Origin: a virus
Taxonomy: Duplodnaviria > Caudoviricetes
Length of the DNA stretch: 64,000 bases
Virus record (IMG/VR): IMGVR_UViG_3300002835_000001
Coordinates: 192,001-256,000 of that record
Direction: 5' to 3' (one strand)
Below, one piece after another: positions 12,425-64,000 of the stretch; position 1 is the stretch's first letter, and each line of letters begins with the position of its first letter. The translations under genes and the position numbers were made by a program. The notes below the pieces were generated by a model, which was given only the letters and a program-made list of their open reading frames with translations, was not told the DNA's origin and searched no databases.

Positions 12425-13543
12425 ATGGCGACTATTATTTCACAACCCGAAAAGGACAAATTATATACTCAGGTATTTCACCTATTAGGTATGCCTGTTC
12501 GTGGTATTGAGCTTACTGAAGAACAAATGGACACGTTCCTTGAACTTTCATTATCAGAATATGAACAATATGTATCTGATTGGTTAATAGAATCTCAATG
12601 GTCGGCATTGGCTGGATTAGACGTAGATACACAATCTTTAACTAACGCCTTTACAACTCGAAGTTTAGATTACGAAACTCAATATAGTCACTCATATTCT
12701 AAAATTGTGGGTTTACAGGCAGGTGGTGATAGTGAACTTAAGAAAGATTTCATAACATTAACAGGTGGAACACAAATGTACGAAGTACCTGCTGGACGTG
12801 AAATAAATGAACTATTATGGTTTACAAGATCAGAAATGACGGATACAATTGTTGACCCGTTTGCTGCTGGATTTGGTGGATTAGGTGGTGTCGGGTTTGG
12901 TGGGTTTGGTGGTTTTGCACAAATGGGTGCGTCAGGTGGTTCATATTTTATGATGCCGGCGTTTGATTTATTATTAAGAATGCAAGATAGAAGTCTTAAA
13001 AATAGATTAATTGGTGGTGACTTAACATACAGAATAACTGCAGGTCCTGATGGAAAAAAATATATTCATCTTTATAATGTACCTGGCGGTAGATTTGACT
13101 TTGGTGCAGTTTATAAAAATAACTATCAAGTTTGGTATTGGTACTATGATACCATGGATAGAGACACTTGTTTAGATAAAAACAAAGACGTTATTAAGTT
13201 ACCTTCAGACGTTATGACTGAAGAATTAACGTGGGATAAATTAAATAAACCTTCTCAGAATTGGATTAGAAAATATCTAATCGGTTATTCTAAAGAAGGT
13301 TTAGGTAGAATTTGGAGTAAATTTTCTGGAGACTTACAAGTTCCAGATAGTTCGGTTAAATTAGATTATAGTTCTTTACTTACCGAAGGTAAAGATGAAA
13401 GATTAAAGTTGGTTGAAGAATTAATGGCTCGATTAGAAAGACTCCGTCCCGATAAAATTCTTGAGAGAAAAGGTGCTGAGGCTGAAAATTTAAATAAAGC
13501 ACTTAAGTTCAGACCAATGCAGTCTCCATACAATATCATTTAA
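12425..13543 (+). CDS. Neck/head-tail adaptor protein (T4 gp13-like)
   Basis: LLGMPVRGIELTEEQM, WIRKYLIGYSKEGLGRIWSKF; TATTTATA at 12402-12409. Confidence 0.75.
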   Translation: MATIISQPEKDKLYTQVFHLLGMPVRGIELTEEQMDTFLELSLSEYEQYVSDWLIESQWSALAGLDVDTQSLTNAFTTRSLDYETQYSHSYSKIVGLQAGGDSELKKDFITLTGGTQMYEVPAGREINELLWFTRSEMTDTIVDPFAAGFGGLGGVGFGGFGGFAQMGASGGSYFMMPAFDLLLRMQDRSLKNRLIGGDLTYRITAGPDGKKYIHLYNVPGGRFDFGAVYKNNYQVWYWYYDTMDRDTCLDKNKDVIKLPSDVMTEELTWDKLNKPSQNWIRKYLIGYSKEGLGRIWSKFSGDLQVPDSSVKLDYSSLLTEGKDERLKLVEELMARLERLRPDKILERKGAEAENLNKALKFRPMQSPYNII

Positions 13544-42545: not shown

Positions 42546-44357
42546 TTAGTCGTTTAAAATATCGTTCAATTTATTTTCTATTTCATAAATATTCTGTTGT
42601 GCCTTTTCCATGTCAAACAAAACATTAAAATCTTCTTTTTCTTCACCTAACATACCTAATATTTTTGATTTTTTAGATGTTGCTTCACTTAAAGGAGCTT
42701 CTCCTCCTCCACCCGCCGCTGGAGGTGGTGGTATTCCTCCCATGTCTCCACCAGCACCCTCACCTCCGGATGCTGCTGCTTCTGCTGCCGCTCTCTCCTC
42801 TTCAGGAATTCCATATTTCTTATCAACCTCATCAAATACACCAGAACGTTTAATAATAAGTTGACTATTTTGTAATTCAAAACCTACCGCTCTTTCTAAA
42901 CGTTGTTGTTGTAAATCAAGTAATACCTCACTATCACTCATACCTAAGATATTTTTCTTAGCCCATGTATGTGATACTGGTAAGATACCTACTTGAGATT
43001 GATCAGATGTCGCATCTTTGTAAAGAGTAATCTTTTCCTTCCATGTTTCAATCTTTAATAAATCTGATTGCTGTGATGGGTTAGTTAACGATAATGAAAA
43101 ACTATTTAAATCATCTTCTAATCCTAATAAATAAAGATGCATTAATGCAATTTTATTTAATTCTTGAATTAACGATTTTTGTATTTTATTGATTGTTCTT
43201 GCAAAACGAATATCCATCAATGCAAGATTCTTACCATCACCAACAACTTCTTCAAAACCTAAGAAAGCTTTAGGGATACGTAAAGCCGCCAATAATTTCT
43301 TTTGAATATATTCAATATCTGCAATTTCGCCCAAGTTCTGAGCTCCTGGTAATGTTTCGATTGGATTTGTTTGTGACGGGTCACGAACAGGTATGAAATA
43401 ATCTTGGTCTACAGCCATTTGATTGTATCTCATATCCACGTTACCATTACGTGGGTCTTGTATTTGGTCTCTTTTAAATTTATTGGCAACACGTTGTACA
43501 TATGGTTCAATATCTTTATCGTCCATATTACCAACAAACACCTTGAACACACGTCTTTCAGGTGCTCTTGATGTTCTATAAATTAACATTGCATCTTCAG
43601 CAAGTAAAAGTTGTTTCCAAATTCTTCTAATCTTATCTAACATAGAAGTACCATATGGTAACTTTCTATCGTCACCCAATAATCTAAAGTGAGCAACTTC
43701 CCAAGCTTGGAATTCCATATCTTTGTTCTTCCAAGTAAATCTTAATTCTCTTGTTGGTAGTTTTAAATCAGAACTTTGATTTGGACTTTTTCCTGTTGCA
43801 CCCTCTAACCTCTCTATTTCAATATTCGGTAATTGTTGGCAACCAATAATACCCTTTTCTGGATCAATTTTTAAATAAACAAAATCGTCACCATACTTAC
43901 AAAGACCTCTTGCCCACATTTGTAAATTGGTATTTATATCTAACTTATTATTAAATAAGTCCACTAAAATACTTTTAACTCTATCTGATTCTGAATATAT
44001 GGTTAATATTTCACCCTTTTCGGACATTGTTGTAGATTCTTCAGCGTATATGTCTAACGACGCTGAAATTTCAGGAGTAAACTCCATAGACTCGTAGTCA
44101 TAATATGCTGCCAATCTATTTGGTTCGTAATAAACAGATTGATTATAAACCGATTGGTCTAACTTGGTCCATTTATCTGCAATGTATTGCGATTGTTGTG
44201 CTTGCAACATCGCCTTTTCGTAGTCTTCTCTACTATCTGTTTTTAATAACTCATCTTTGTTAAAATTAAAAGATGGTGTTTTATCCTTAATCGATTGACC
44301 CGGATAACCAAACATTCTTGTTAGTTTCTGAAAGACGGTGTAATTCTGTTCTGCCAT
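42546..44357 (-). CDS. Portal protein (T4 gp20-like)
   Basis: YESME-TPEI, LCKYGD, EDAMLIYR-SRAPERRVF, EDY-like QDYFIP, IETLPG. Confidence 0.95.
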   Translation of the reverse strand: MAEQNYTVFQKLTRMFGYPGQSIKDKTPSFNFNKDELLKTDSREDYEKAMLQAQQSQYIADKWTKLDQSVYNQSVYYEPNRLAAYYDYESMEFTPEISASLDIYAEESTTMSEKGEILTIYSESDRVKSILVDLFNNKLDINTNLQMWARGLCKYGDDFVYLKIDPEKGIIGCQQLPNIEIERLEGATGKSPNQSSDLKLPTRELRFTWKNKDMEFQAWEVAHFRLLGDDRKLPYGTSMLDKIRRIWKQLLLAEDAMLIYRTSRAPERRVFKVFVGNMDDKDIEPYVQRVANKFKRDQIQDPRNGNVDMRYNQMAVDQDYFIPVRDPSQTNPIETLPGAQNLGEIADIEYIQKKLLAALRIPKAFLGFEEVVGDGKNLALMDIRFARTINKIQKSLIQELNKIALMHLYLLGLEDDLNSFSLSLTNPSQQSDLLKIETWKEKITLYKDATSDQSQVGILPVSHTWAKKNILGMSDSEVLLDLQQQRLERAVGFELQNSQLIIKRSGVFDEVDKKYGIPEEERAAAEAAASGGEGAGGDMGGIPPPPAAGGGGEAPLSEATSKKSKILGMLGEEKEDFNVLFDMEKAQQNIYEIENKLNDILND

Positions 44358-44410
44358 ATCTATAAATACTTTTCTTTATAATATAAACTAAATTATTAGT
44401 AATTGGAACA

Positions 44411-46186
44411 TTATTTTGATCTTCCAAATAACCAATTATATTCTTGATATTGGTTCTTACCGGGTACGTTACGTATATCTTTAAATGCTGGATTATCGTC
44501 AAACCCCATTGATCCTATTTGGTCGAAAGCGGTCCCATATGAGTAAAAAGACTTATTTGGTTCGTATGTACGTTCACTCATTGTCCAAGAATCTAACATT
44601 GCTTTGTTAGCATTTTCATTCTTTTGTAATAAGTTAAAAGATACGTCTGCAGCGTATAATGCCATTGACATACCCATAATGGCATCATCGTGTGAACCTT
44701 TCATATGGTCAGGTCTTCCATTCATGTAAACAAACGTATTGAGTTCGTTTAATAATCTTGCAGATCTAACAATAAATCCCTTCCTAAGTTGCTCTTCAAA
44801 TGCGGCAACAATTTGAGTTCTTTTATTATTGAAGTTAAGTCCTGGTATTTTCTCCATCGCTTTGGCGTTATAGTCCCAAATGTTTTGAGTATTAACTCCT
44901 TCAATGTAAACATTCTTATAGTTTAACTCAGTTAATTTTCTTGATGTGGCAACACCCATACCACCTGTAATATCCGTAACAATAAACGCATTACCATATA
45001 AAATAGCCCATTTATATGCAACGGCAGCTAAATCATCAGGAGGTATTTTACCAATATATTCCGCAACCTGTTCTCTATCATCAAAATCAATAATTGATAT
45101 TGCTGAAAAATCCTCACTATCTCCTCTACTCACATCCACCCCCATAATATAACGATGACCGATGATTGGTTCTTTCCATTGCCAAAATGTGGCTTGCATG
45201 TATTTTTCAATTGGTTCTCTTATCATGTTCTTAGCAATATTCTCTTGAATATCGCCAGGAATAACACCATCTCCCGAACCTAAGAAATCACATTCCAACT
45301 CCTGAGCTATCTTACGTCTATCATATTTAAATTTCTTAGACATTGACTCAAACCAAGATGAAAATGGTTTATAACCGTCTTCTAAAAGTTTTAGATATTC
45401 TTTCATGTCAAAATCATGTAGAACAACTTCATCATCATTATATTGTTCTCTATTTAACATGTAATGACAGATGTCTTGACATTTTATCCAACGTAAATCT
45501 TTGGTGTAACGAGGGTCTTTAAACCATCTTAAATCGGTTATATGGAAATCATTGATTCCACGTAATGCTTGGTCGTAAACACCATAATAGATGGGGTCGT
45601 AACCATTTGGAGTTGAGATAAGAATAATCTTACCACCCGTTGATAGGGACGCCATAGAGGCCGCCCAAAAATCATCTCCCGCTTCAATGTATGCCGCCTC
45701 ATCAAATACAAGTATGGTAGGTGTGTAACCACGAAGGGCATCCGCTGATGTTGCAACCGCCTTAACCTCACATCCATTGTTTAATCTAAATCTACTTTCT
45801 GAGTTTTTATCGGGTGAGAACCCAACATTAATCCATTCAGGCCATTGTTCTAAGAAATGTCTAACCTTATTAGCCATCTCCACCGCAGTATCACGTTTGT
45901 TCGCAATAAGTAGAACTCTCTCAGGATTATCTGGTTTTGCTAATTGTAATTTTTTTGATAACCAAGCAGCCGTTACTGTTGTAACACCGGCTTGTCTATA
46001 TTTTCTTGTAATATTTTCGTTGTAATCTTCGTAGTCCTGTATTAGTTGAATTTGGTCTTCAAATAAGTCCATTGGGACATATTTCTTCTGTGTATTATCA
46101 AATGTCTGTAAATACGTTCTAAGTGCATATGGGGTATCTTTTATAATCTTAGCATACTCCATTAATTGTTCTGCTCTACTATTCAT
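44411..46186 (-). CDS. Terminase large subunit (gp17-like)
   Basis: KYRQAGVTT, FDEAA, ISTPNG, QELEC-FLGSG, GVDVSRG, HDDAIM. Confidence 0.96.
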   Translation of the reverse strand: MNSRAEQLMEYAKIIKDTPYALRTYLQTFDNTQKKYVPMDLFEDQIQLIQDYEDYNENITRKYRQAGVTTVTAAWLSKKLQLAKPDNPERVLLIANKRDTAVEMANKVRHFLEQWPEWINVGFSPDKNSESRFRLNNGCEVKAVATSADALRGYTPTILVFDEAAYIEAGDDFWAASMASLSTGGKIILISTPNGYDPIYYGVYDQALRGINDFHITDLRWFKDPRYTKDLRWIKCQDICHYMLNREQYNDDEVVLHDFDMKEYLKLLEDGYKPFSSWFESMSKKFKYDRRKIAQELECDFLGSGDGVIPGDIQENIAKNMIREPIEKYMQATFWQWKEPIIGHRYIMGVDVSRGDSEDFSAISIIDFDDREQVAEYIGKIPPDDLAAVAYKWAILYGNAFIVTDITGGMGVATSRKLTELNYKNVYIEGVNTQNIWDYNAKAMEKIPGLNFNNKRTQIVAAFEEQLRKGFIVRSARLLNELNTFVYMNGRPDHMKGSHDDAIMGMSMALYAADVSFNLLQKNENANKAMLDSWTMSERTYEPNKSFYSYGTAFDQIGSMGFDDNPAFKDIRNVPGKNQYQEYNWLFGRSK

Positions 46187-46198
46187 ATATATAAATAC

Positions 46199-51191: not shown

Positions 51192-51223
51192 TTTGTTTTT
51201 TAGAATGAAATGTGTTATGTTTG
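51192..51223 (+). promoter_or_regulatory. Bacteroidota sigma-A-type promoter for clpC
   Basis: TTTG (51192-51195), 20-nt spacer, TATGTTTG (51216-51223). Confidence 0.7.
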
Positions 51224-51246
51224 TAGAAACTAAACGTAAAAATAGT

Positions 51247-53265
51247 ATGGCAGTAGATTTTTTTGAAGACGGACCAACGACAAACCCTAAAAGGGGACGT
51301 AAAGGTTCAACCACCCCAATCTTAGATAATTTTTCTCGCGATTTAATTAAACTCGCGGAAGAAGGAAAGATTGACCCTGTAGTGGGAAGGGATAAAGAAG
51401 TGAGAAGAATCGCACAAATTCTTTCTCGTAAAAAGAAAAATAATGCAGTTGTTGTTGGAGAGGCTGGTGTTGGTAAATCAGCATTAGTTGAAAAACTCGC
51501 ATTAATGATTGTAAAAGGAGATTGTCCCACAAATCTACTTGACAAAAGAATTGTCTCTTTAGATTTAACCTCTTTAGTTGCGGGAACAAAATATCGAGGA
51601 CAATTTGAAGAGAGGATTAAAGCAATCTTAAATGAATTACAAGAGGCACACAATGTTATTGTATTCATCGATGAGTTACACACAATGGTAGGTGCAGGAA
51701 ATGCCAGTGGAGCAATGGATGCGGCTAATATTATGAAACCCGCATTAGCTAGAGGAGAGATTCAATGTATCGGTGCAACCACATTCGATGAATTTAAGAA
51801 ACACATTGAAAAAGATTCTGCTTTAGTTAGAAGATTTCAAAAAGTAATTTTAAAAGAACCAACTCAATCGGAAACCATTGAAATTTTAAATAACCTCAAA
51901 ACTTCATATGAAGATTTCCATAAAGTACAATATGAGGATGGTGTGATTGACACGATTGTTAAATTATCGGGTCGTTATATTACTGATAGACAATTTCCCG
52001 ATAAGGCTATTGATGTTATTGACGAGTTAGGATCTGAAAAAAGGATTTCATTACGTGCTCCCGATACAATTGAAAAATTAAAAGGTCAAGCTGATGAGAT
52101 TAAAGAAAAAAAGATTCTTGTTGTTAAAAATCAGAATTACGAACAAGCGGCAAAACTTAGAGATGAAGAAAGAAAAATTTTAGATAAACTTGAGGTTGAG
52201 AAGTCCAAGTGGATGGAAAAACAAAAGGATAATAAAATTCCTGTTTCTATTGATGATGTTTATACTATTGTATCTGAAATGACGGGTGTACCAATCACTA
52301 AATTAGATTCTAACGAAACTAAAAAGTTATTAAAGATGGAAACCCTATTATCAGAAAAGGTTATTGGTCAAGATGAAGCAATATTAAGCATCTCAAAAGC
52401 AATTAGACGTAATCGTGTGGGAATTAAAGATGCCAACAAACCAATCGGTTCATTTATTTTCTTAGGTTCCACAGGTGTCGGTAAAACACATTTAGCTAAG
52501 TCCCTTGCGAATTTATTATTTGGTGATCCCGATAAAATCATTCGTGTTGATATGAGTGAATTTATGGATAGACACAATGTATCCAAATTAATCGGTTCTC
52601 CTCCGGGTTATGTTGGTTATGATGAAGGAGGTCAATTAACTGAAAAGGTTAAGAATAATCCTTTCTCCGTTATCTTATTTGATGAAATTGAAAAGGCACA
52701 TAAAGATATCTTCAATTTATTATTACAAATTTTAGATGAAGGTCATTTAACCGATTCATTTGGTAGAAAAGTTAATTTTACTAATTGTTTGATTATCATG
52801 ACATCTAATATCGGTGCTAAAAAAGTATCTGAGTTTGGTGGTGGTGTTGGTTTCAGTACTTCATCAAGTGAAACACAAAAATATGAAGTGAAGAAAACTA
52901 TGATTCAAAAATCATTGAAGCAACAATTTAATCCCGAATTTTTAAATCGTATTGATGATATTGTCTTGTTTAACTCGTTAAATGAAGAATCACTAAAGAA
53001 AATTATTGATATTGAAATTGGTAAGTTAAATTCCCGTTTAGTAGATAAAAATTACATTGTTACGTTTGATAAAACTGTTATCGATAAAATTTTTGAATTA
53101 AACACTCAAGAAGAATACGGAGCGAGACCTTTGAAACGTATCATTCAAAATTTATGTGAAGATTTCTTAAGTGAGGAAATCTTAAAGGGTAATATTATTG
53201 AGAATTTACCGATTATTTTAAAATATAAAAACGAAAAATTAACAATTGTGAAAAAAATGTTATAA
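51247..53265 (+). CDS. clpC: ClpC-like double AAA+ unfoldase lacking the Clp-N domain
   Basis: GEAGVGKS/FIDELH, UVR-like YEQAAKLRDEE, GSTGVGKT/LFDEIEK, VGF loop, GARPL. Confidence 0.92.
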   Translation: MAVDFFEDGPTTNPKRGRKGSTTPILDNFSRDLIKLAEEGKIDPVVGRDKEVRRIAQILSRKKKNNAVVVGEAGVGKSALVEKLALMIVKGDCPTNLLDKRIVSLDLTSLVAGTKYRGQFEERIKAILNELQEAHNVIVFIDELHTMVGAGNASGAMDAANIMKPALARGEIQCIGATTFDEFKKHIEKDSALVRRFQKVILKEPTQSETIEILNNLKTSYEDFHKVQYEDGVIDTIVKLSGRYITDRQFPDKAIDVIDELGSEKRISLRAPDTIEKLKGQADEIKEKKILVVKNQNYEQAAKLRDEERKILDKLEVEKSKWMEKQKDNKIPVSIDDVYTIVSEMTGVPITKLDSNETKKLLKMETLLSEKVIGQDEAILSISKAIRRNRVGIKDANKPIGSFIFLGSTGVGKTHLAKSLANLLFGDPDKIIRVDMSEFMDRHNVSKLIGSPPGYVGYDEGGQLTEKVKNNPFSVILFDEIEKAHKDIFNLLLQILDEGHLTDSFGRKVNFTNCLIIMTSNIGAKKVSEFGGGVGFSTSSSETQKYEVKKTMIQKSLKQQFNPEFLNRIDDIVLFNSLNEESLKKIIDIEIGKLNSRLVDKNYIVTFDKTVIDKIFELNTQEEYGARPLKRIIQNLCEDFLSEEILKGNIIENLPIILKYKNEKLTIVKKML

Positions 53266-56269: not shown

Positions 56270-56305
56270 ATGTATCAGGAGAGAGGTACATTTATTTTTG
56301 TCATG

Positions 56306-56338
56306 TCCCCGTTGGTTTTTATCAATGGGGATTTTTTT
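56306..56338 (+). terminator. Terminator between convergent operons
   Basis: TCCCCGTTG...CAATGGGGA-TTTTTTT. Confidence 0.7.
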
Positions 56339-57893
56339 ATAACATCATTCTTGACCCAATAAGAAAATTACTTAAGAATGGGGAACCTGGTTTGGTATTA
56401 CCTCCCAATTTATAATTGAAACTAAATCCAAAACGTTTAGTTATTTTATAATCAAATGATGACCCCAATAAAAATCCCATATGTCTATTAACTGTCGTTT
56501 CTCCGTTTGTACTATTCCAAGCTATTGGTGAAAACATAGTAAACACCTGCGGTGATACTGTAAGTTTTTTTGAATAAACATATGGCTTCGTCCAAAATGC
56601 GATTGCTGAAGATGCTACATTATAATCATATCCTTTTCCATTATTAAGGAATAAATTAATGATACCAACATTATAACCAAATGTTCCTTTTTTAGGTGTT
56701 GGCTTAATCCAAGTATAACCTAACAAATTCATATAGTTACCAGCAAGATAAGCAAATGCTGTTCCATATGAATGTATCGCATCTAAATTACCATCTTTTT
56801 TCATTGCCATTTTAGTGTAACCACCCGTTAATACTATTTGACTTAAATCACTATTCACCACCATACCTGAACTATAACTTTCATCACCCGCCATAGATGA
56901 TTTACTTACACCCATTGATATCGATACCAAATATCTATTATCGGGCATTTGAGATGTTGTTAAGTCAGAAGACATTAATAGTGGATTTGTTACCTCATCT
57001 TTCTTCTTCTTTTCTTCCTCTTTCTTCTTCTTTTCTTCTTCTTTCTTTTTCTCCTCCTCTTTTTTGGTTTCTTCTTTCTTTTCTTCCGATTTCTTTTCCT
57101 CGGTTTTAGACTCCTCTTTTTTCTCTTCAGTTTTAGTTTCTGTTTTCTTTTCTTCTGTTTTACTTTCAGTTTTAGTTTCAGTTTTAGTTTCTTCTGTTTT
57201 AGTCTCGGTTTTAGTCTCGGTTTTAGTTTCTGACGATGATGAACCACCACTACTTGAAGATGATGAACCGCTACTTGATGAAGAACTACTTGCTGGTGGA
57301 GGTGATGAAGAACTACTTGCCGGTGGTGGAGTACTTACTGGTGGGGGCGTTGAAGCACTACTTGCGGCAGATGATGCCGCACCACTTGCTGCACCACTTG
57401 CAGATGAACTTGCGGCTGACGATGCTGCAGAACTCGCAGCTGACGATGCTGCTCCACTTGCAGATGAACTTGCGGCTGACGCAGCACTAGCCGCCGCAGC
57501 ATCTGATGCAGCTTTAGCCGCCGCAGCCGCCGCAGCATCTGATGCAGCTTTAGCCGCCGCAGCCGCCGCAGCATCTGCCGCCGCCCTTGCCGCAGCATCA
57601 GCCGCAGCCCTTGCTGCCGCTTGTTGAGCTAAGAAAATTGCATCGTCTTGTGTTGAACATGGTGTTGCAAATATACTATTAACCCATGTTTGAAACGCAC
57701 CACTACTGATATCTGCTAATGTTACAATTTTAGATTTACCTCTAATAACAGCAACGGTTGAGTTTTGTCCGAATGGAATAATAACCACATATACCTTTTG
57801 ATCACACGGATCAATATATGTTTGTGTTATGGTTTGACCAAACGACTCACTACAAAAAAATAATATTAGGAGAGAGATAATATATTTTTTCAT
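56337..57893 (-). CDS. Exported protein: signal peptide, small Cys-pair domain, A/S/P-rich and K/E-rich stalk, C-terminal OM beta-barrel
   Basis: MKKYIISLLILFFCSESFG-Q; amphipathic beta strands; SFDYKITKRF. Confidence 0.7.
   Translation of the reverse strand: MKKYIISLLILFFCSESFGQTITQTYIDPCDQKVYVVIIPFGQNSTVAVIRGKSKIVTLADISSGAFQTWVNSIFATPCSTQDDAIFLAQQAAARAAADAAARAAADAAAAAAAKAASDAAAAAAAKAASDAAAASAASAASSSASGAASSAASSAASSAASSSASGAASGAASSAASSASTPPPVSTPPPASSSSSPPPASSSSSSSGSSSSSSGGSSSSETKTETKTETKTEETKTETKTESKTEEKKTETKTEEKKEESKTEEKKSEEKKEETKKEEEKKKEEEKKKKEEEKKKKDEVTNPLLMSSDLTTSQMPDNRYLVSISMGVSKSSMAGDESYSSGMVVNSDLSQIVLTGGYTKMAMKKDGNLDAIHSYGTAFAYLAGNYMNLLGYTWIKPTPKKGTFGYNVGIINLFLNNGKGYDYNVASSAIAFWTKPYVYSKKLTVSPQVFTMFSPIAWNSTNGETTVNRHMGFLLGSSFDYKITKRFGFSFNYKLGGNTKPGSPFLSNFLIGSRMML
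57161..57630. repeat. Low-complexity GC-rich coding repeats (12-bp ETKT units; 36-bp unit at 57490-57577)
   Basis: gttttagtctcg/gttttagtttca runs; gccgccgcagcatctgatgcagcttta at 57490 and 57526. Confidence 0.85.
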
Positions 57894-57894
57894 T

Positions 57895-58734
57895 TTAAAA
57901 ATTAATACCTAAACCAAAAGTACCATTACTAATAATTGGGTCGTAATCCATTTTTATTGTAAAATTTTTATAATCATGTAAAGCCCCTATTTTTATTGTT
58001 GTAAAACGATTTGAATATTTTGGGAATGTTATGTAACCATCATCATCTTTTCCACGATATCTTACAATCTCGTTAACGTTACCCACCATAAAATGAACTC
58101 CCGTTCTTTTAACTCTTTTCCCAAAACCAACATAAAATGAGTTTAATTTAACTAAATCATCAACAAGTGGAAAATCAACGAGGTCTAATCTTCCATGTGG
58201 ATAAAAAGTTGACCTATCATGTGTGAAATTATATTCTGTTATGAAATATCCTTTGTTACCAATTGTAAAGAATCCACCAATTTGTCTATCTGTTGTTTTT
58301 TGAATACCAAAACTTATGATAGGTTTTTTTCCTCTAATAGTATCTCTATTACCATTATCATAAACATAAATTCTTGCAGGTTGTCTGTAACCCCAATCGT
58401 TCCAATATGGCATTGGAGACCAATAATTCCACCCAAAATTAGGTGCTCCCCACATGTCCCATCTATTCCATCCCCAATTGTTCCACCCCTGTCCATAGTT
58501 ATTCCAATATGGGTCTCTGATTACTATATTTGAACCTCGTCTTGGTTGTGGTTGTGATTCTTGTGGTGGATTGTTTCTCCAACTACTCACATTGTTTTGT
58601 TGTGGTATGGATGGTTGAACTCTTGTTTGAGTTGATTGTGTCTGTGATTGTGTAGGTGGGTTACTTCTCCAAGTTGATATTTGACCAAATAGAAGTGTTG
58701 GTATGAATGTTAAAAATACTAATAGAGTCTTCAT
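57895..58734 (-). CDS. Exported protein with Q/P and W/G/N-rich region and small OM beta-barrel
   Basis: Signal peptide ending LLFG-Q; terminal beta-signal FGLGINF. Confidence 0.7.
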   Translation of the reverse strand: MKTLLVFLTFIPTLLFGQISTWRSNPPTQSQTQSTQTRVQPSIPQQNNVSSWRNNPPQESQPQPRRGSNIVIRDPYWNNYGQGWNNWGWNRWDMWGAPNFGWNYWSPMPYWNDWGYRQPARIYVYDNGNRDTIRGKKPIISFGIQKTTDRQIGGFFTIGNKGYFITEYNFTHDRSTFYPHGRLDLVDFPLVDDLVKLNSFYVGFGKRVKRTGVHFMVGNVNEIVRYRGKDDDGYITFPKYSNRFTTIKIGALHDYKNFTIKMDYDPIISNGTFGLGINF

Positions 58735-58756
58735 AAGTTTGTTTTTATATAAATAT

Positions 58757-58788
58757 AAAAAAAGGGGGTATTACACCCCCTTTTTTTT
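58757..58788. terminator. Bidirectional intrinsic terminator after CsgG-like gene
   Basis: AAAAAAAGGGGGT-ATTAC-ACCCCCTTTTTTTT. Confidence 0.85.
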
Positions 58789-58810
58789 ATCTTAACTCAT
58801 TAAAATATGT

Positions 58811-59533
58811 TTATTTTGTAAAAATTCCCTTTTTAATCATTCTATCAAGAATGTTAGCACAAGCAATATCTAAAGCTTTTTTGGTTGCAGTACTAATTGT
58901 TGATTGGTTGAATTTAATTGGGTCAATCGTTGCGTCAGACAAAAGAGTTAATTCTCTTTTTGTTGTTGCCTCACCTAAACCCGATCCACCAAATACAACA
59001 CCAGTTTCCGCGTTTGTAAATCTAACTTGAAGACCAATACGAGTTACCATATTATCTTGTACACCATTTTTAAGGTTCACAGTTTCATCTTCAGATACCG
59101 AGTAGTCATAACACTCAATGGTTACAAAATACTCAGCCAAATTGATTTTACCACGTCCGTCTAACTTATTCTCAGAAATTCCGGATTGAGATGCTTGAAA
59201 TTGTTTTACCATACGATTCTTAATTTCTGTCTTGTCTTCAGTAAATTTGAATCTGTTTAAGTTTTCAAGATATTCCATAGATATATTTGCAACACCCAAA
59301 CCAACACGTTTTTCTTTTAATTCAGGATACATCTCATACATCTCATCAGAAATGCCCGCCTTTAATATTTGAATTGGAATTTGAGGACCATCGTAGTCCA
59401 TGTAAGCACTTATATCTCTTTTCTTTTCGAAGTCCGCCTTATAGTCTTCCGTTTTAGTTTTACCTATTGTTTGTCCGTTAACGACAACAGCGCTTAGTAA
59501 AAAAACACTTAATAATGTTAATAATTTTTTCAT
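58811..59533 (-). CDS. CsgG-family protein with Sec signal peptide
   Basis: GLGVANI..E.L.N.NRF...E, AEYFVTI...DYS, IGLQVRF-NAETG-V. Confidence 0.72.
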   Translation of the reverse strand: MKKLLTLLSVFLLSAVVVNGQTIGKTKTEDYKADFEKKRDISAYMDYDGPQIPIQILKAGISDEMYEMYPELKEKRVGLGVANISMEYLENLNRFKFTEDKTEIKNRMVKQFQASQSGISENKLDGRGKINLAEYFVTIECYDYSVSEDETVNLKNGVQDNMVTRIGLQVRFTNAETGVVFGGSGLGEATTKRELTLLSDATIDPIKFNQSTISTATKKALDIACANILDRMIKKGIFTK

Positions 59534-59546
59534 ACATCTTATTTTA

Positions 59547-59807
59547 TTAACCTTCTAATTCTTCTTCTTTCTTTTTGTGAGAGAATTTATCCAAAGTATC
59601 GGCACCCATTCCAATTCCCGTTATTAACATCACTGCATTTACCAATTCAGGTGATGGAGCAAAATCCGCGTGAGAGAACGAATTTAATACCATTGTAACA
59701 CATAGGAACATTGCACCTACCATTGCTATTACCGGCTTAACCGATATTGATCCCCTTTCATCTTTGAAAAGTTCGATAACCCATTCTTTAAATTTCATTT
59801 TTGTCAA
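59547..59807 (-). CDS. Small two-TM membrane protein
   Basis: Two hydrophobic segments, charged termini. Confidence 0.7.
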   Translation of the reverse strand: MTKMKFKEWVIELFKDERGSISVKPVIAMVGAMFLCVTMVLNSFSHADFAPSPELVNAVMLITGIGMGADTLDKFSHKKKEEELEG

Positions 59808-59826
59808 TTTTTAATTTATATTTATT

Positions 59827-60456
59827 TTATCCTTCCATGTGCATTTCTGCATTTTCATCTTTTATTTTACCACACTTTAAACATTCCTCAATCCCATCTC
59901 CGTCTAAGTCACCCCAAACGTGATCACATTGTCTATGTGCAAAATACATATCAATTTTGCCATCCCCGTCGAAATCTATACCATCCATTATACCATCACC
60001 ATCTTCATCAACTTCAATACCTGTTCTTGGTTGAACGGTTGGTACTTGTTCAAACGTATCATTTACCTTTTCGGTTTTTGAATTCTCAATAGCTGTTTGA
60101 AACGATTCTGGAATTAGTGGAGTATTGTTTGGTGGAGTTACAGGTAAATCGGCGGTATTGCTTAACGCCGTACCATCTTCCTCATCCATTTTCTGAACTA
60201 ACATCTTATCCTTATCCGTATCACTAAACCAATAGTCAATAATTTTACCATAAGAACCAATAAAGGCTCCCAATAATAATAGAAGAAGTTCTTTCCATTC
60301 TCCTTCTATTGCCGATTTATTTAATATAGCGAAGAACATTCCTCCTATAATAAACATAAATCCACCCAATACTAATGCGGTGATGTACCATCTTCTGGCC
60401 ATCATATTACTTAATAAATCTTTAAATCCACTTGGTGTTTCTTTATTTTCCGCCAT
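59827..60456 (-). CDS. Two-TM membrane protein with DxDGDG Ca-binding-like repeats and Cys/His tail
   Basis: DEDGDG, DFDGDG, DLDGDG; H-CDH...C-KC. Confidence 0.7.
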   Translation of the reverse strand: MAENKETPSGFKDLLSNMMARRWYITALVLGGFMFIIGGMFFAILNKSAIEGEWKELLLLLLGAFIGSYGKIIDYWFSDTDKDKMLVQKMDEEDGTALSNTADLPVTPPNNTPLIPESFQTAIENSKTEKVNDTFEQVPTVQPRTGIEVDEDGDGIMDGIDFDGDGKIDMYFAHRQCDHVWGDLDGDGIEECLKCGKIKDENAEMHMEG

Positions 60457-60476
60457 ATTACTTATTTTTTTTTAAT

Positions 60477-60635
60477 TTATGGTCTATTCCAAGACCATCC
60501 TTTTTTTCTACCTCTTATTACTAAATAACTACAACCCCCAATAAAAAATGTTAAAAACATCAATGGAGAATTAAATACAAACATAGCTATCATGCATAAT
60601 ACAATTACTGCTATAAAACTTAATCCTTGTTCCAT
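60477..60635 (-). CDS. Small two-TM protein, 52 aa (not in ORF track)
   Basis: MEQGLSFIAVIVLCMIAMFVFNSPLMFLTFFIGGCSYLVIRGRKKGWSWNRP fills the gap exactly. Confidence 0.65.
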   Translation of the reverse strand: MEQGLSFIAVIVLCMIAMFVFNSPLMFLTFFIGGCSYLVIRGRKKGWSWNRP

Positions 60636-60644
60636 TTTAATTTT

Positions 60645-60956
60645 TTACCACTTAGGAGCCTCTTCCTTAAACTCATCACCTTCTTTTTTCTTAACCGGTT
60701 TTGCGGGTTCTTTAACGGTTTCTTTTTCTTTAATAATAACCGTCTTACCACCACCCGCTGATTGTTGTTGAGTTTGTGAATTTGTAATGTTTATTACTGG
60801 TGCCGCTTGTACTGGTGCTGGTTCTGATTTGTCACCACCACCTAAAAGTGAGGCTGCCCATACACCACCTGCGGTTACTATGGTACCCACAGCACCGATA
60901 AGTGTTTTCTTTAAACCACTCATTGTTCCTTCTTGTTCTTGTGTTTCTTCTGACAT
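60645..60956 (-). CDS. Single-TM protein with low-complexity tail
   Basis: KKTLIGAVGTIVTAGGVWAASLLGG. Confidence 0.65.
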   Translation of the reverse strand: MSEETQEQEGTMSGLKKTLIGAVGTIVTAGGVWAASLLGGGDKSEPAPVQAAPVINITNSQTQQQSAGGGKTVIIKEKETVKEPAKPVKKKEGDEFKEEAPKW

Positions 60957-60986
60957 TGTATTTGTTTTTAGTTTATTTTATTAATA

Positions 60987-61706
60987 TTATGCACCAAACG
61001 CTTTAGTAAATCCTTCAGGACAAGTTTTTGTACATATCAAATCTGCAATAACTGGTGCAAATGCTGCTCCAATTGCAATACCAACTCCAGCTGGTGTTGC
61101 CCATAACTCTGCGGAATCTAAACTTTTACCTAAACAATTTGAAATTATATTTTTTAATAGTGTGTGGTCAATACTATCACTAACGTATGGTATTGCTAAA
61201 AATCCTTCTGTTATAATTTCTGTCATTGCCATTACTACCACCACTTTAGCCGCTTTATCTGCAACATAAAGAACAGGTGTTGCCATAAGTGATAGAGTGG
61301 TTGATGTCGCTGCGCCCGCTGGTTGTTCTGGTGCAAATGCCGCAACACAACCCAAACCAATTGCTGCGGTTACTCCTATATTACAAGCATTTTTATCAGC
61401 CCATTGATATGCATCAATTACCCCTTCTTTTACTTCTTCGTAACCTTCTTTAATTACAGACTCTATTTCATTTCCAATATTAATGAGTACTGGTACTACT
61501 TCTTCTTCCCACTCTCTACCAGTTACATCTTCAATTCTATGATTTGTTTCAGGATGGTCGTGTATGTACCTTATTGCTCTATCGGTAAGTCCCCATGATT
61601 CACATGTTGAACAAGGGCCGTCACCACCAAATCCATACCATCTTACATTGTTATCTCCGCAATCTGAGCGATGATAAACTATTCCGTCTCCGTTTCTGTC
61701 TGCCAT
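60987..61706 (-). CDS. Cys-rich protein with A/G-rich hydrophobic helices, no signal peptide
   Basis: ACNIGVTAAIGLGCVAAF, PAGVGIAIGAAFAPVIADLIC. Confidence 0.65.
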   Translation of the reverse strand: MADRNGDGIVYHRSDCGDNNVRWYGFGGDGPCSTCESWGLTDRAIRYIHDHPETNHRIEDVTGREWEEEVVPVLINIGNEIESVIKEGYEEVKEGVIDAYQWADKNACNIGVTAAIGLGCVAAFAPEQPAGAATSTTLSLMATPVLYVADKAAKVVVVMAMTEIITEGFLAIPYVSDSIDHTLLKNIISNCLGKSLDSAELWATPAGVGIAIGAAFAPVIADLICTKTCPEGFTKAFGA

Positions 61707-61726
61707 AATTTTTATTTTTTAATTTT

Positions 61727-62107
61727 TTAGTTTATTTTATTGAAATCTGTTATTCCTAATTGTTTATTATTAGAATCGAATAACCCTATTCTGTATGCTG
61801 ATGATGGTAATGCGTTAGTGTATACCTTTAAAAGGTTATCACCCGCAATTACGTTCATTGTTTCTTTAGATACCACCCTATTGGAAATGTCAAATATTTT
61901 AATCGTTACCGGACCTGCGGTTTCAATTTTAACGTTCATCGCCACTTCTGAAGTGACAAATGATGATTGTAATTTAATACCAATAGAACTTGTCATTTTC
62001 AGGTCTTCTGATATTGATTGAGGTGTAGGTAAGATATCGTCCTTATAACATCCTGTTAAAATTGTGGATACCAATACTAATAAGAGAATCTTTTTCATTT
62101 TTGTCAT
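61727..62107 (-). CDS. Lipoprotein consisting of a T9SS type-A CTD-like domain
   Basis: LTG-C lipobox, C-Y-K-D-D, VTIKIFDISNRVV...G-N...LPSSAYRI. Confidence 0.65.
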   Translation of the reverse strand: MTKMKKILLLVLVSTILTGCYKDDILPTPQSISEDLKMTSSIGIKLQSSFVTSEVAMNVKIETAGPVTIKIFDISNRVVSKETMNVIAGDNLLKVYTNALPSSAYRIGLFDSNNKQLGITDFNKIN

Positions 62108-62110
62108 TTT

Positions 62111-62452
62111 TTAATTTACTATTATTGTTGTCTTTTTTAATTCTTTTTTATCCACATCCTCAAGTACTAAATATAAATATCCCTTGGGTAATGAATTGGT
62201 ATAAATCTTTTTTTCATTTTTACCTATTTGACCAATAAACTTTTCTCGACTTATTACTTGTCCACTATTTTTATCGATTAAAATTAAATAATGAACAGTA
62301 TTAGAGGTTAAATCAAAAAAAATTGATTGACCATTTGTTACACTACTTTCACCCACATTGAATATTTTTTCAACAGGAGGAGTTGGGGTTGGGATATCCA
62401 TCTTAGTACAACCCCATAGTAAAATCACAAATATGAATAGTATTTTTTTCAT
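62111..62452 (-). CDS. Lipoprotein, paralogue of the downstream gene, T9SS CTD-like
   Basis: LWG-C lipobox; IYTNSLPKGYLYLVL vs VYTNALPSSAYRI. Confidence 0.62.
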   Translation of the reverse strand: MKKILFIFVILLWGCTKMDIPTPTPPVEKIFNVGESSVTNGQSIFFDLTSNTVHYLILIDKNSGQVISREKFIGQIGKNEKKIYTNSLPKGYLYLVLEDVDKKELKKTTIIVN

Positions 62453-62455
62453 ATG

Positions 62456-63349
62456 TTAAAATTGAAAGTTTGTTCCTATCATAAACATTATTGGATTACT
62501 CTTTTTATACCCAACCGATTCGCTCAATTTGTCAAAAGTTGTGTTATATCTAATATTAGTATTCAAAATGAACCTTTTAGTTATTTTCCAATCAAACGAT
62601 GTTCCATAATATAAATCTAAATTAAAATCATCAAAATATGATAAATCCGATGTCGTACCATCTTTAAATACTTTATAGACATCACTCATTGCAAATATTT
62701 GCGGTGATATGTTTACCCTTTTTGTTTTCAATGTATATGTGTACATTACCATACCTCTATAACTTATTTCACTTGATGCCGGCACCATTGGATATATTAA
62801 ATCTTTAAAATCACCATTTTCATCTACCGTATATTTTCCTTCCCATTGACCTTCATATGTTCCCCAAAAAGATTTTGATGCAATTAAACTATATCCAAAT
62901 GTTCCAAACTTTTTAGTTCTGAATACATCTATGAATGATAGTGTAATATCTTTTTGGAAATCAAAATCGGTTGAATAAAATGATTGTAATGTAGTAGTTC
63001 TCTTATCTGTATTTCTAGTGAAACCATATCCTACTCCATAATATTTCCATATAGGGTTTATTGACGCTGCGAATGTGTGTCCCCATTGACCATTCATAGA
63101 TGATTTATTGTAACCCAAATTAAGAGTAGTTGATACTTGTCTACCAATTATACCAACTGAAAGATTTGATGATGATAGAACATCTTTTGAAAAATTAACA
63201 TAGGATTGTAATATACCCACATCGTTCCAATCATCACTTTCCCCAAATAATTCCTTTGGTGATAGTTGTAATGTATCGGGTTTTTGTATTTGTGCGTTTG
63301 TCACAAATGTTGTCGAAATTAGTGACAGAATTATTATTAGTTTTTTCAT
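62456..63349 (-). CDS. Outer-membrane beta-barrel protein
   Basis: Signal peptide ending TNA-Q; amphipathic strands; SFDWKITKRF; terminal IGTNFQF. Confidence 0.72.
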   Translation of the reverse strand: MKKLIIILSLISTTFVTNAQIQKPDTLQLSPKELFGESDDWNDVGILQSYVNFSKDVLSSSNLSVGIIGRQVSTTLNLGYNKSSMNGQWGHTFAASINPIWKYYGVGYGFTRNTDKRTTTLQSFYSTDFDFQKDITLSFIDVFRTKKFGTFGYSLIASKSFWGTYEGQWEGKYTVDENGDFKDLIYPMVPASSEISYRGMVMYTYTLKTKRVNISPQIFAMSDVYKVFKDGTTSDLSYFDDFNLDLYYGTSFDWKITKRFILNTNIRYNTTFDKLSESVGYKKSNPIMFMIGTNFQF

Positions 63350-64000
63350 TAGTTCATTTTTACTTTTAATTGTATTCCATTCTTATTGACGGCATCGGTT
63401 GTTGATATTGAAGTTAAACCCAAAGTACCACTCAATCCTATTAATGGTAAAAATGTTATTTTATATTCTGTTGTTTTATCCAATAATGTTGAACCATCAG
63501 TAATCAATGAACCTAATGTTATTGATGAACCTCTATTAGTTCCAAAATTGGTAGGAGTTCCATTTGTGGTGAATTCTACCTTTTCAAACTTTAATGCTGT
63601 ATTATCGTAGTTTAAATTGAATTGAGTACCAACCAACTCTTGTTGTAAAGGGTCTACCGAAATCGTTACTACTAATTTACCACCAATGTTTTCACCCATT
63701 AGATATGCGTTGATTTGATTGGAAACTGAATTAGTACCCAAACTCATAGTTCTAATAGAATTACTAGCAACACCACTTGTACTTTGTTGTGCTGAATGAG
63801 ATAGGTTTACATCACCAAGCCAAGTAACATTAACATTGTATGTGTTATTAAGTGTACCCGTATTTAAACTAAACGGATATAAACTTCTTGTTGAATTAAA
63901 TTTGGTATTCCAATTAGATTTAGTAATCCCATCATAATCTGATTTACTATAAAGTTTCATCAGAAAAGTTAATAGTGGATTTTGTGTAAGTGGTTGAACT
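63349..64000 (-). CDS. C-terminal part of a large exported-type protein with a cohesin-like domain; open to right window edge
   Basis: Frame stays open upstream of the track ATG (VQPLTQNPLLTFL); VGTQFNLNYDNTALKF...ITF cohesin-like pattern; WLGDVN. Confidence 0.6.
   Translation of the reverse strand, partial: VQPLTQNPLLTFLMKLYSKSDYDGITKSNWNTKFNSTRSLYPFSLNTGTLNNTYNVNVTWLGDVNLSHSAQQSTSGVASNSIRTMSLGTNSVSNQINAYLMGENIGGKLVVTISVDPLQQELVGTQFNLNYDNTALKFEKVEFTTNGTPTNFGTNRGSSITLGSLITDGSTLLDKTTEYKITFLPLIGLSGTLGLTSISTTDAVNKNGIQLKVKMN

Follow-up and report, generated by a model that had tools for sequence, protein, structure and literature searches.

A possible phage-encoded envelope module

The 12 genes at one end of a 64,000-nt stretch of phage DNA (hereafter, the window) may form an envelope module through which the phage makes infected Bacteroidota cells display glycan-binding proteins, a tentative reading that we hold with confidence somewhat short of even and that draws on sequence comparisons and structure models. 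The open reading frames (g01 to g12) lie back to back on the minus strand across positions 56337-64000, with gaps of 1-76 nt, and almost every product carries a signal peptide, a lipobox, or a transmembrane (TM) helix. A first-pass annotation of the DNA had likewise described at least 12 consecutive minus-strand genes, nearly all with export or membrane signals. Sheath, capsid, portal, terminase, and PolB genes share the window, showing that it derives from a real myophage, and the phage origin of the surroundings of g01-g12, also claimed previously, is certain. The source is a large lake-water phage of Bacteroidota. On a 97% identical contig (L024), the block extends past the window edge and comprises ~16 genes. 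Conservation of the proteins across independent phage contigs, which number from dozens to hundreds, indicates that g01-g12 are real genes. Gene content, export signals, conservation, folds, and domain families can be read directly from the sequence and models, and the features are as follows.

56337..57893, (-): g01, 518 aa; signal peptide, two-Cys domain, stalk, and C-terminal barrel (composition and alignment with g11)
57834-57893, (-): g01 signal peptide
57639-57833, (-): g01 small N-terminal domain with two Cys
56985-57638, (-): g01 low-complexity stalk, about 218 aa, with Ala/Ser, Ser/Pro, TETK, and EK-rich runs (composition)
56340-56984, (-): g01 C-terminal predicted barrel domain (full-length alignment with g11)
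57895..58734, (-): g02, 279 aa; signal peptide, then an N/P/W/Q-rich and a beta-rich half (composition)
58748-58755, (-): TATTTATA motif, 14 nt before the g02 start
58757-58787, (-): terminator-like hairpin with a 14-bp stem, between g03 and g02
58811..59533, (-): g03, 240 aa; CsgG-superfamily, predicted ring-forming periplasmic protein (Pfam via relatives, fold, model)
59547..59807, (-): g04, 86 aa; two hydrophobic segments, C-terminus charged; holin-like in shape only
59827..60456, (-): g05, 209 aa; two hydrophobic segments near the N-terminus, acidic region, three Cys
60477..60635, (-): g06, 52 aa; small hydrophobic membrane protein of variable presence
60645..60956, (-): g07, 103 aa; bitopic, with one N-terminal TM segment, a Pro/Gln/Lys-rich tail, and a terminal Trp
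60987..61706, (-): g08, 239 aa; no signal peptide, eight Cys, three to four hydrophobic segments; accessory insert
61727..62107, (-): g09, 126 aa; lipoprotein, Cys20 followed by YKDD, small beta-sandwich-like domain
62111..62452, (-): g10, 113 aa; lipoprotein, paralogue of g09 (cross-matches with g09)
62456..63349, (-): g11, 297 aa; predicted outer-membrane beta-barrel of about 12 strands (AF2 model)
63349..64000, (-): g12, C-terminal 216 aa with a cohesin-like domain, cut by the window edge (Pfam, family profile, homologues)

Sec-type signal peptides with a ...G/A-Q ending were found in g01, g02, g03, and g11, and hydrophobic TM segments in g04 through g08.

Predicted outer-membrane barrels

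The AF2 model of g11 (pLDDT 65, moderate) contains 12 long strands and matches barrels generically (VIA Z 15.8 with OmpG, about 13 with autotransporter barrels), which points to a generic 12-14-strand outer-membrane fold for this family, which has no Pfam match and is virus-only in Atlas. The C-terminal 215 aa of g01 are paralogous to g11 (BLASTP E 1e-5), with an alignment spanning the whole domain. The third candidate, g02, is probably a small outer-membrane barrel; its Atlas neighbours beyond viral clusters, OMP_b-brl_2 and OMP_b-brl (0.88-0.89), offer only a lead, and its N-terminal half is rich in a few residues (N16, P13, W12, and Q12 in 112 aa). The first-pass annotation named three barrels, two of them with F-type beta signals at the end; g02 (...GLGINF) and g11 (...NFQF) end in Phe, and g01 in Leu.

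Lectin-cohesin proteins and lipoproteins

The start of g11 overlaps the stop of g12 by 1 nt. The g12 product, whose full-length counterpart is about 765 aa (L024:3427-5724), falls under the Pfam Cohesin cut-off (21.7 versus 24.1 bits), but its family profile matches 11 cohesin structures (E 1e-3 to 0.6), and in its homologues a C-terminal Cohesin domain, above cut-off in three of them, follows a Lectin_C, PA14, or LCCL head. The earlier cohesin-like call is thus supported at the family level, and the family has a constant C-terminal cohesin domain behind exchangeable sugar-binding heads (C-type lectin, PA14, LCCL). The head in the present phage is a C-type lectin; relatives may have PA14 or LCCL. 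A search for Pfam dockerins gave none, although single EF-hand-like loops do occur.

The lipobox Cys of g09 and g10 is invariant across 31 homologues. Matches to Por_Secre_tail, the T9SS sorting domain, recur in the g09 family (13/31 members), as do matches to DUF3244 (12/31); the sorting-domain similarity is below cut-off in every member, g10 scores 13.9 bits against a cut-off of 27, and no product of the window passes.

Phage outer-membrane proteins and lipoproteins that block receptors are established, as for T5 Llp and Cor. Receptor interference has also been proposed for phage outer-membrane proteins (OMPs) generally, with reference to lambda Lom-LamB (bioRxiv 10.64898/2026.10.24.761521). 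The barrels, lipoproteins, and ring protein could accordingly mask host surface machinery, such as T9SS components or OMP receptors, and so keep other phages (or progeny) from adsorbing to the infected cell, with no role in adhesion. Given that g09 and g10 consist of little beyond the sorting-domain-like region, they could be decoys. However, their similarity stays under the cut-off, no receptor is known, and masking does not account for why the heads on the cohesin tails diversify among lectin, PA14, and LCCL; we regard it as unlikely, though it is the alternative to take most seriously.

Small membrane proteins and intergenic signals

Between the lipoproteins and g03 lie five proteins with hydrophobic segments. 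The sole PHROG match of g04 was phrog_2909 (function not annotated; E 0.0045), the acidic region of g05 contains three DxDGDG calcium-loop-like motifs, and g08 weakly matches phrog_12278, "tail fiber/lysozyme" (1.8e-6, residues 40-152). Apart from this g08 match, no lysin, spanin, endolysin, holin, or virion family was matched in the block (Pfam, PHROG, NCBIfam), in keeping with the earlier statement that lysin, spanin, and virion hallmarks are missing.

These proteins might instead serve lysis or egress, with holin, antiholin, or spanin-like roles for g04-g07 and with the outer membrane weakened or gated by the CsgG-like and barrel proteins as infection ends. The size and shape of g04 (two hydrophobic segments, charged C-terminus) are those of a class II holin, g07 is bitopic like an i-spanin, and lysis control has been proposed for the CsgG of phage Melnitz (PMC9004378). 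Moreover, a motif found ahead of the sheath, portal, and terminase genes (TATTTAT) has a separate copy before g02-g01, and on L024 it lies 18 nt before g02. The motif does not prove late timing, however, because it precedes an operon with DNA polymerase as well. Further arguments against lysis are the lack of matching holin, spanin, or endolysin families in the block, the absence from the window of a homologue of the endolysin of Flavobacterium phage immuto, and the g07 tail, which is Pro/Gln/Lys-rich (as read by eye), whereas i-spanins usually have a helical domain. With no obvious part for the lectin and cohesin proteins either, this explanation seems rather improbable. A point against the display reading is that g04-g06 resemble holins or other small membrane proteins of phages, and their role may be unrelated to display.

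A CsgG-superfamily protein

Proteins of the CsgG/LptE fold ring or plug outer-membrane barrels, as in PelC-PelB, CsgG, LptE-LptD, and the FlgP/FlgT rings. No direct Pfam match to CsgG was found for g03 at E≤0.1, but 14 of its 36 aligned relatives match this family (best 1.9e-17). CsgG was also the top Foldseek match of the g03 AF2 model (pLDDT 77.9; E 7e-7), with a VIA Z of 12.9 (rmsd 3.8 over 157 aa) compared with 10.1 for PelC and about 8.5 for LptE. By these transitive matches and the predicted fold, g03 is a member of the CsgG superfamily, and the label "CsgG-family" holds in this sense, although Pfam does not see it directly.

Multimer prediction, a check proposed with the first-pass annotation, gave an ipSAE of 0.70 for four g03 copies against 0.00 for the best control (partner pLDDT at least 77; runs agreeing in at least 92% of contacts). 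Among solved structures, the mark of this tool was attained by 20 of 30 paired proteins and by 1 of 23 single-chain ones; it holds only roughly for g03. The model supports head-to-tail, ring-like self-association, although the passing score may also stem from likeness to solved CsgG rings.

The best structural match and the modelled ring-like self-association would suit a true type-VIII-like channel, the reading first put forward, in which g03 is a CsgG-type outer-membrane pore exporting a phage substrate for fibres, such as the Q/N/W-rich part of g02, which is amyloid-prone in composition, or the lectin-cohesin proteins. However, g03 has a signal of the signal-peptidase-I type without a lipobox, its counterpart of the CsgG TM1 hairpin (148-162) is six residues shorter and acidic, and its TM2 region is about 11 residues shorter than that of CsgG (counted by eye). 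A curli-type pore is unlikely because of the missing lipobox and the short, acidic hairpin counterpart; g03 is more reminiscent of PelC and other members of the fold that form rings without a pore. Genes resembling csgA, B, E, or F were not found, and g03 itself falls below Pfam CsgG. The claim of a secretion pore is therefore weakened, and we consider such a channel quite improbable.

Conservation of the gene block

The g03 protein is encoded at 520 IMG/VR loci, and co-occurrence was counted over 38 fully covered loci. Gene order is fixed. Of the 38 loci, g03 and its core partner g07 are present in 38/38, g05 in 36, lectin/cohesin (g12-type) genes in 35, g10 in 33, g09 in 31, g01 in 27, g11 in 25, g04 in 20, g02 in 19, g08 in only 9, and g06 in 5. 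The barrels are thus either not strictly required or too diverged to detect (g01 undetected by BLAST in 11/38 loci; g11 absent from 13/38). The cultured phage immuto carries a shorter syntenic version, consisting of lectin, cohesin, g07, g03, and g01 counterparts and a second CsgG-fold protein. Its gp018 has the same architecture as g01, and gp016, directly before the g03 homologue, is 44% identical to g07. The immuto cohesin protein exceeds the Pfam cut-offs for Cohesin (36.7 bits) and the T9SS sorting domain (34.6 bits) and is therefore addressed to the cell surface.

Two checks that could have overturned the first-pass view thus favored it: the genes co-occur as a module, and no matching cellular operon was found, with cellular g03 relatives (185,579 species genomes searched) in a different gene context and the barrel, g02, and g05 families virus-only in Atlas. 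Some close g03 homologues do come from MAG bins carrying the labels Flavobacterium, Sediminibacterium, Thiobacillus, and Micavibrio, but these inconsistent labels fit mis-binned phage contigs, and with phage genes flanking the block both here and on many independent contigs (up to 335 kb), and the block present in an isolated, sequenced phage, a cellular envelope operon misjoined to phage DNA can practically be discounted.

A possible route to envelope display

If the block is indeed a display module, its products would reach the Bacteroidota cell envelope through the Sec and lipoprotein pathways of the infected host. Its core would be g07, a bitopic inner-membrane protein, and g03 (both in every relative), together with the usually present g01. 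We infer localization, ring formation, the pairing of barrels with cargo, and biological purpose: g03 would form a periplasmic ring beneath the outer membrane, in the manner of PelC with PelB, probably with no curli-type membrane pore, and g01 would be an outer-membrane barrel bearing its small Cys-containing domain on the 220-aa low-complexity stalk. The display set would comprise the secreted head-cohesin proteins, the translationally coupled 12-14-strand barrel g11, lipoproteins g09 and g10, and the small barrel g02, with the small membrane proteins g04-g06 as a third set. Against this reading, no product of the present phage passes as a T9SS sorting domain and no Pfam dockerin was found that would take the lectin-cohesin proteins across or onto the outer membrane. 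Such a module could alter the adhesion of the infected cell or its debris, or access to its receptors. Of the original envelope-remodelling or secretion proposal, a phage-borne, co-occurring module whose products carry export signals is supported, and a curli-type pore is not.

Comparison with known systems

The block was initially thought to have no described equivalent, but partial equivalents are already published, namely phage csgG/csgF genes (PMC7029224, PMC9004378), phage T9SS cargo (PMC7468147), and huge-phage OMPs (bioRxiv 10.64898/2026.10.24.761521); the present combination of genes was not found in the literature searched. The huge-phage OMPs of Yuan and Chen are likewise signal-peptide outer-membrane barrels in large phages, many from freshwater, often near envelope genes, although their neighbours are mostly transport genes and CsgG, cohesin, and lectin have zero occurrences in the text (bioRxiv 10.64898/2026.10.24.761521).

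Pelagimyophages (HTVC008M group) and the Methylophilales phage Melnitz encode csgG and csgF, for which sibling capture, uptake, and lysis control were speculated (PMC7029224; PMC9004378). They too are lytic aquatic myophages with a CsgG-family gene and no curli subunit genes. However, theirs are recognizable CsgG and CsgF in phages of Proteobacteria, whereas the phages here infect Bacteroidota and lack CsgF, and g03 is too divergent for Pfam, has neither a lipobox nor convincing membrane hairpins, and sits in a ~16-gene block with barrels, lipoproteins, and lectin-cohesin proteins.

"Cryophage" (Bellas et al. 2020, PMC7468147) is also a Bacteroidota phage with variable secreted host-surface proteins. 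A bona fide T9SS sorting domain is present in the immuto cohesin protein, whereas no window product passes that cut-off and the block brings its own barrels and CsgG-like protein. In cellulosome-type cohesin-dockerin surface assemblies the heads are enzymes, whereas those seen here are lectin, PA14, or LCCL binding domains, and our proteins are virus-encoded with no Pfam dockerin; common to both are a C-terminal cohesin (g12 family) and swappable functional heads, along with the T9SS-addressed cohesin protein of immuto. Finally, the block differs from PelC-PelB in having no polysaccharide synthesis genes and no lipid anchor on g03, but shares with it the fold, a modelled head-to-tail self-association, and adjoining outer-membrane barrel genes.

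Genomic context and organization of the cassette

Twelve minus-strand genes (g01-g12) occupy 56337-64000, with gaps of 1-76 nt between them and a one-base overlap between g12, which is cut by the window edge, and g11. The first-pass annotation had described these genes as a run encoding signal peptides, lipoboxes, TM helices, and three barrels, two of them with F-type ends, and this description was accurate: Sec signals with a G/A-Q end are carried by g01, g02, g03, and g11; lipoboxes by g09 and g10 (the Cys is invariant across 31 homologues, and g09 reads on C-Y-K-D-D); hydrophobic segments by g04-g08; and a C-terminal Phe by g02 and g11. Direct scans of the 12 products against Pfam, PHROG, and NCBIfam returned almost no matches. 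The window itself is phage DNA, as PHROG scans identify phage hallmark genes along it, together with a protease gene:

5510-8368, tail sheath
13540-16437, family-B DNA polymerase
37341-39071, major head protein
42546-44357, portal
44411-46186, large terminase
51193-53265, plus strand, FtsH-like ATP-dependent protease (phrog_4871, E 2e-242)

This protease gene is on the strand opposite the cassette, at a distance of 3 kb. FtsH is a membrane protease, and a link between its phage-encoded relative and the envelope module is conceivable.

The part of the cassette past 64000 was read from L024, a 116-kb IMG/VR contig (g03 97% identical), which brings the full block to around 16 genes. There, g12 encodes 765 aa. 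The product carries a signal peptide and a C-type lectin domain that exceeds its cut-off (25.7 bits), as well as a single EF-hand-like loop and the cohesin-like domain at its C-terminus; its gene is preceded by genes for a 550-aa paralogue and a 216-aa membrane-anchored protein. The YajG-like match of the 216-aa protein is sub-threshold (PF03923, E 8e-5; 22.8 bits, cut-off 25), and the protein weakly resembles g03; hence, it may be a second member of the CsgG/LptE fold class.

Among isolated phages, the nearest relative is vB_FspM_immuto (immuto), a 160-kb Flavobacterium myovirus from the Baltic Sea, matched at the protein level only (g03 54% identical). A DNA search against isolated phages gave a single 148-nt match, to immuto, and tblastn of g11 against isolated phages gave none. 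A near word-for-word copy of the stretch was found in 18 freshwater and lake metagenome runs from 2016 and 2024, and 6-16% of sampled words were present in six metatranscriptome runs.

DNA signals in and around the cassette

Within the cassette, g03 is separated from g02 by two elements:

58757-58787, minus strand, terminator-like hairpin (14-bp stem followed by T's)
58748-58755, minus strand, TATTTATA, 14 nt before g02

TATTTAT(A), which is the T4 late -10 box TATAAATA in reverse complement, lies in sense 4-41 nt before many gene starts (e.g., 8406-8413, 44361-44368, 46190-46197, and 58748-58755). Counted simply, TATTTATA is not enriched in the window (21 vs 13.7 expected); the enrichment is confined to where it stands relative to gene starts. 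Correspondingly, 22 of the 47 window copies of TATTTAT are in sense and at most 80 nt upstream of a gene start, in intervals that make up 4.7% of sequence space. Genes preceded in this way include those for the sheath, portal, and terminase, as well as g02, and in L024 the motif is found 77 nt ahead of the first cassette gene and 18 nt ahead of g02. TATTTAT(A) is likely a phage promoter element. As it also precedes the polymerase-containing operon, it was not used to assign late timing to the cassette. A sigma-70 promoter scan scored below chance, and such a scan is ill-suited to Bacteroidota. Just beyond the 3' end of the cassette is a short hairpin (56270-56295) whose core reads CTCTCTCC/GGAGAGAG, and related copies flank both ends of the L024 cassette (L024:1051-1070 and L024:13139-13158). 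This hairpin may be a regulatory or recombination element.

Conservation among phages and distant cellular relatives

Relatives of g03 are encoded on 520 IMG/VR stretches, and metagenomes yield 5772 clusters at 90% identity. Among the 38 loci with enough flank for counting, g03 and g07 were present in all, followed by g05 (36), g12-type genes (35), g10 (33), g09 (31), g01 (27), g11 (25), g04 (20), g02 (19), g08 (9), and g06 (5). Gene order is fixed among relatives, and immuto keeps the same order in shorter form: a lectin gene (gp013), gp014, a cohesin gene (gp015), the counterparts of g07 (gp016) and g03 (gp017), a g01-type gene (gp018), and a small YajG-like gene (gp019). Hence, on the locus counts, the fixed order, and the synteny with immuto, the cassette genes do co-occur in relatives; failure to co-occur was what the first-pass annotation had named as refuting its reading. 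The genes divide into a core of g07 and g03, usually joined by g05 and g01, and a display set that varies.

One sparsely distributed gene, g08 (60987-61706, minus strand; 9/38 loci), encodes a product with eight Cys and several hydrophobic segments, without a signal peptide, and with a weak PHROG "tail fiber/lysozyme" match. It looks like an inserted accessory gene, possibly for a membrane-active toxin or holin-like protein.

A match to a cellular operon had been named as an alternative origin, and none was found: a scan of cellular genomes (one per species, 185,579 species; query, the closer-relative alignment A3 in place of the more divergent A1) yielded 10 g03 loci. Those nearest to g03 lie on MAG contigs that are short or oddly binned, and identity in the distant ones is 32-38%. 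In an Ignavibacteriales MAG (L088:7977-11847), the neighbors differ from those in the phages: the g03 homologue stands in tandem with a second CsgG-like lipoprotein, alongside an 825-aa transglutaminase-like/TPR protein and a CHASE2 adenylate cyclase, in a putative cellular envelope locus whose context is not that of the phage cassette. In the Atlas, only viral clusters lie near the g11, g05, and g02 families. Four distant relatives of the g03 domain were also observed (P0215, P0217, P0219, and P0270), three fused to a caspase-like Peptidase_C14 and one placed after a Ser/Thr kinase domain; these arrangements suggest that the CsgG-like domain has been reused as a periplasmic module in cellular signaling and protease proteins.

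Predicted fold and assembly of g03

The g03 product itself has no Pfam match at E ≤0.1; an exhaustive phmmer search with it found only 212 representative clusters, and phmmer against the PDB found nothing. Among 36 aligned relatives (phmmer E ≤1e-10), 14 match CsgG (PF03783; best 1.9e-17, several above cut-off) and six match LpoB, and the family profile reaches PDB CsgG at E 0.023. An AF2 model (pLDDT 77.9) adopts the CsgG alpha/beta fold, with CsgG as the top Foldseek matches (E 7e-7, TM 0.42-0.50). By VIA, CsgG scores Z 12.9 (rmsd 3.8, 157 aa) and leads the next families (Cj1090c 10.6, PelC 10.1, FlgT 8.6, and LptE about 8.5) by about 2 Z units. Since relatives match CsgG and the best fold match of the model is also CsgG, the predicted membership of g03 in the CsgG superfamily is sound.

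CsgG is an outer-membrane lipoprotein with an N-terminal lipobox Cys, and its amphipathic transmembrane beta-hairpins, TM1 and TM2, build a 36-strand barrel. The signal of g03, ending in VVNGQ, has no Cys, and neither has that of immuto gp017; L-x-x-C is present in more distant relatives. In the profile alignment, TM1 of CsgG is six residues longer than its g03 counterpart (residues 148-162), which has 5 acidic residues among 15, and a manual count from the sequences puts the TM2 region at about 11 residues shorter than that of CsgG. Transmembrane hairpins of the CsgG type were therefore not recognized in g03, a comparison made at the sequence level. Companions (csgE and csgF) or substrates (csgA and csgB) were not found in Pfam, NCBIfam, or PHROG scans of the cassette products and the L024 upstream genes.

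A four-copy model of g03 predicts head-to-tail contact by two different faces (ipSAE 0.70 vs 0.00 for the best control; partner pLDDT at least 77; runs agreeing in at least 92% of contacts). The oligomer mark it passes, reached by 20/30 proteins solved as pairs and 1/23 solved as single chains, applies here roughly, and the pass may reflect likeness to solved CsgG rings. We read g03 as a putative periplasmic ring protein of the PelC/LptE/FlgP kind, rather than a curli pore. Of the CsgG-like channel initially proposed, the superfamily and fold thus stand, but not the channel features.

Predicted outer-membrane barrels

The g11 product combines a signal peptide, an AF2 model (pLDDT 65) with 12 long strands in a predicted closed barrel, and a C-terminal aromatic residue (NFQF). 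Its best VIA match is OmpG (Z 15.8, rmsd 2.9, 192 aa), followed by autotransporter barrels, FadL, PgaA, PorV, and FapF (Z about 13); Foldseek and AFDB matches are generic. A barrel profile searched against 5.8 billion proteins found only unnamed metagenome proteins without Pfam domains (1101 family members). The model indicates an outer-membrane barrel of a new sequence family, with a fold that points to no specific function. A role for g11 as a PorP/SprF-type partner of T9SS type-B cargo was considered and set aside, the AFDB clusters being generic barrels only, with PorP/SprF at rank 30.

The g01 product is laid out as follows, from the N-terminus:

signal peptide
65-aa domain with two Cys
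low-complexity stalk, about 218 aa (Ala/Ser, Ser/Pro, TETK, and EK-rich)
215-aa C-terminal domain, aligning with g11 end to end (last residue Leu)

The order of passenger, stalk, and barrel is autotransporter-like. There is no PF03797 match, and one autotransporter cluster appears at Atlas rank 87 (for g11). The analogy makes g01 at most a candidate type Va protein. For g02, which ends in GINF, composition, the C-terminal Phe, and Atlas leads provide a lead toward a third barrel.

Lectin-cohesin proteins and lipoproteins

The g12 fragment scores 21.7 bits against Pfam Cohesin (PF00963; cut-off 24.1), whereas homologues score above it, at 34.0, 26.9, and 24.2 bits, and the family profile (A4) matches 11 cohesin structures (E 1e-3 to 0.6). 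A Cohesin domain is thus predicted for the family, with the window copy just below cut-off. The N-terminal binding heads of relatives differ, being Lectin_C, PA14 (with a GLEYA-like match), or LCCL plus Lectin_C. In immuto, gp015 carries both Cohesin (36.7 bits) and a T9SS sorting domain (34.6 bits) above cut-off; the latter indicates that, at least in immuto, the cohesin is probably addressed to the cell surface via the host type IX system.

Dockerin (PF00404), a duplicated loop-helix segment that binds calcium, was not found by Pfam in full-length L024 proteins or in 10 relatives. Separately, in the g05 product (59827-60456, minus strand) two transmembrane segments are followed by three Cys and three calcium-loop-like DxDGDG motifs, and the underlying DNA motif recurs in the EF-hand-like loop of the lectin protein (repeat family D4, L024; the lectin part lies outside the window). 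The g05 product may thus supply the dockerin-like partner that the cohesin domains otherwise lack.

The paralogous lipoproteins g09 and g10 carry no T9SS type A sorting domain above cut-off: g10 scores 13.9 bits against Por_Secre_tail (PF18962; cut-off 27), matches in relatives are all sub-threshold (13/31, best 4.3e-4), and the sorting-like domain comes after the lipobox rather than at the end of a passenger. Sub-threshold similarity to DUF3244 also recurs in both, and their profile had no meaningful match in the PDB.

Interpretation and comparison with known systems

We tentatively favor, as a reading that may well hold, an envelope module encoded by the phage, with a CsgG-fold ring and barrels of its own, for the display of glycan-binding proteins that diversify. 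The envelope remodeling suggested by the first-pass annotation is partly supported, as a conserved phage module with export signals but without the CsgG-type pore features in g03. In a more elaborate form, the cassette would be a self-contained export-and-display apparatus, in which a CsgG-like sub-membrane ring, dedicated barrels, and lipoprotein anchors assemble the lectin-cohesin proteins as a surface scaffold of viral design, a "viral cellulosome for sugars." Such a scaffold could let infected cells catch neighboring host cells or particles, or absorb competing phages, and its exchangeable heads (lectin, PA14, and LCCL) would follow host glycan diversity. Taken as a whole, this surface-scaffold proposal is rather unlikely.

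Among the other explanations, that the cassette serves to mask receptors is also on the unlikely side. Control of lysis or egress is doubtful: no holin, spanin, or endolysin family was matched in Pfam, PHROGs, or NCBIfam, although these families are too diverse for such absence to be decisive, and no homologue of the immuto endolysin occurs within the window. A true CsgG-type channel would agree with the fold of g03 but not with its shortened, acidic TM1, and is improbable. An artefact, given the hallmark genes and the conserved order, can be practically dismissed.

Lytic phages are usually thought to spare the host surface, bar a few exclusion proteins. Here, a widespread lake-phage group devotes about 12 kb to 14-16 exported proteins, conserved over hundreds of contigs and from families otherwise not known outside viruses. 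Aquatic Bacteroidota are major degraders of particles and algal polysaccharides, and display of diversifying glycan-binding proteins would, if true, be a new viral route to change their cell-cell or cell-particle adhesion, as well as a function for the long-puzzling CsgG-like genes of aquatic phages. The question is directly testable, since immuto and Flavobacterium sp. LMO8 form a cultured pair.

The initial view that the system has no described equivalent applies to the combined cassette, of which we found no description in the open-access literature, but not to its parts. An October 2026 preprint, whose text does not mention CsgG, cohesin, or lectin, describes 1,603 OMPs from huge phages and suggests that they interfere with receptors (bioRxiv 10.64898/2026.10.24.761521). 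Phage-encoded T9SS cargo has already been described (PMC7468147), and csgG and csgF without curli subunits are known from pelagimyophages and Melnitz, with speculated roles in sibling capture, uptake, and the gating of lysis (PMC7029224; PMC9004378).
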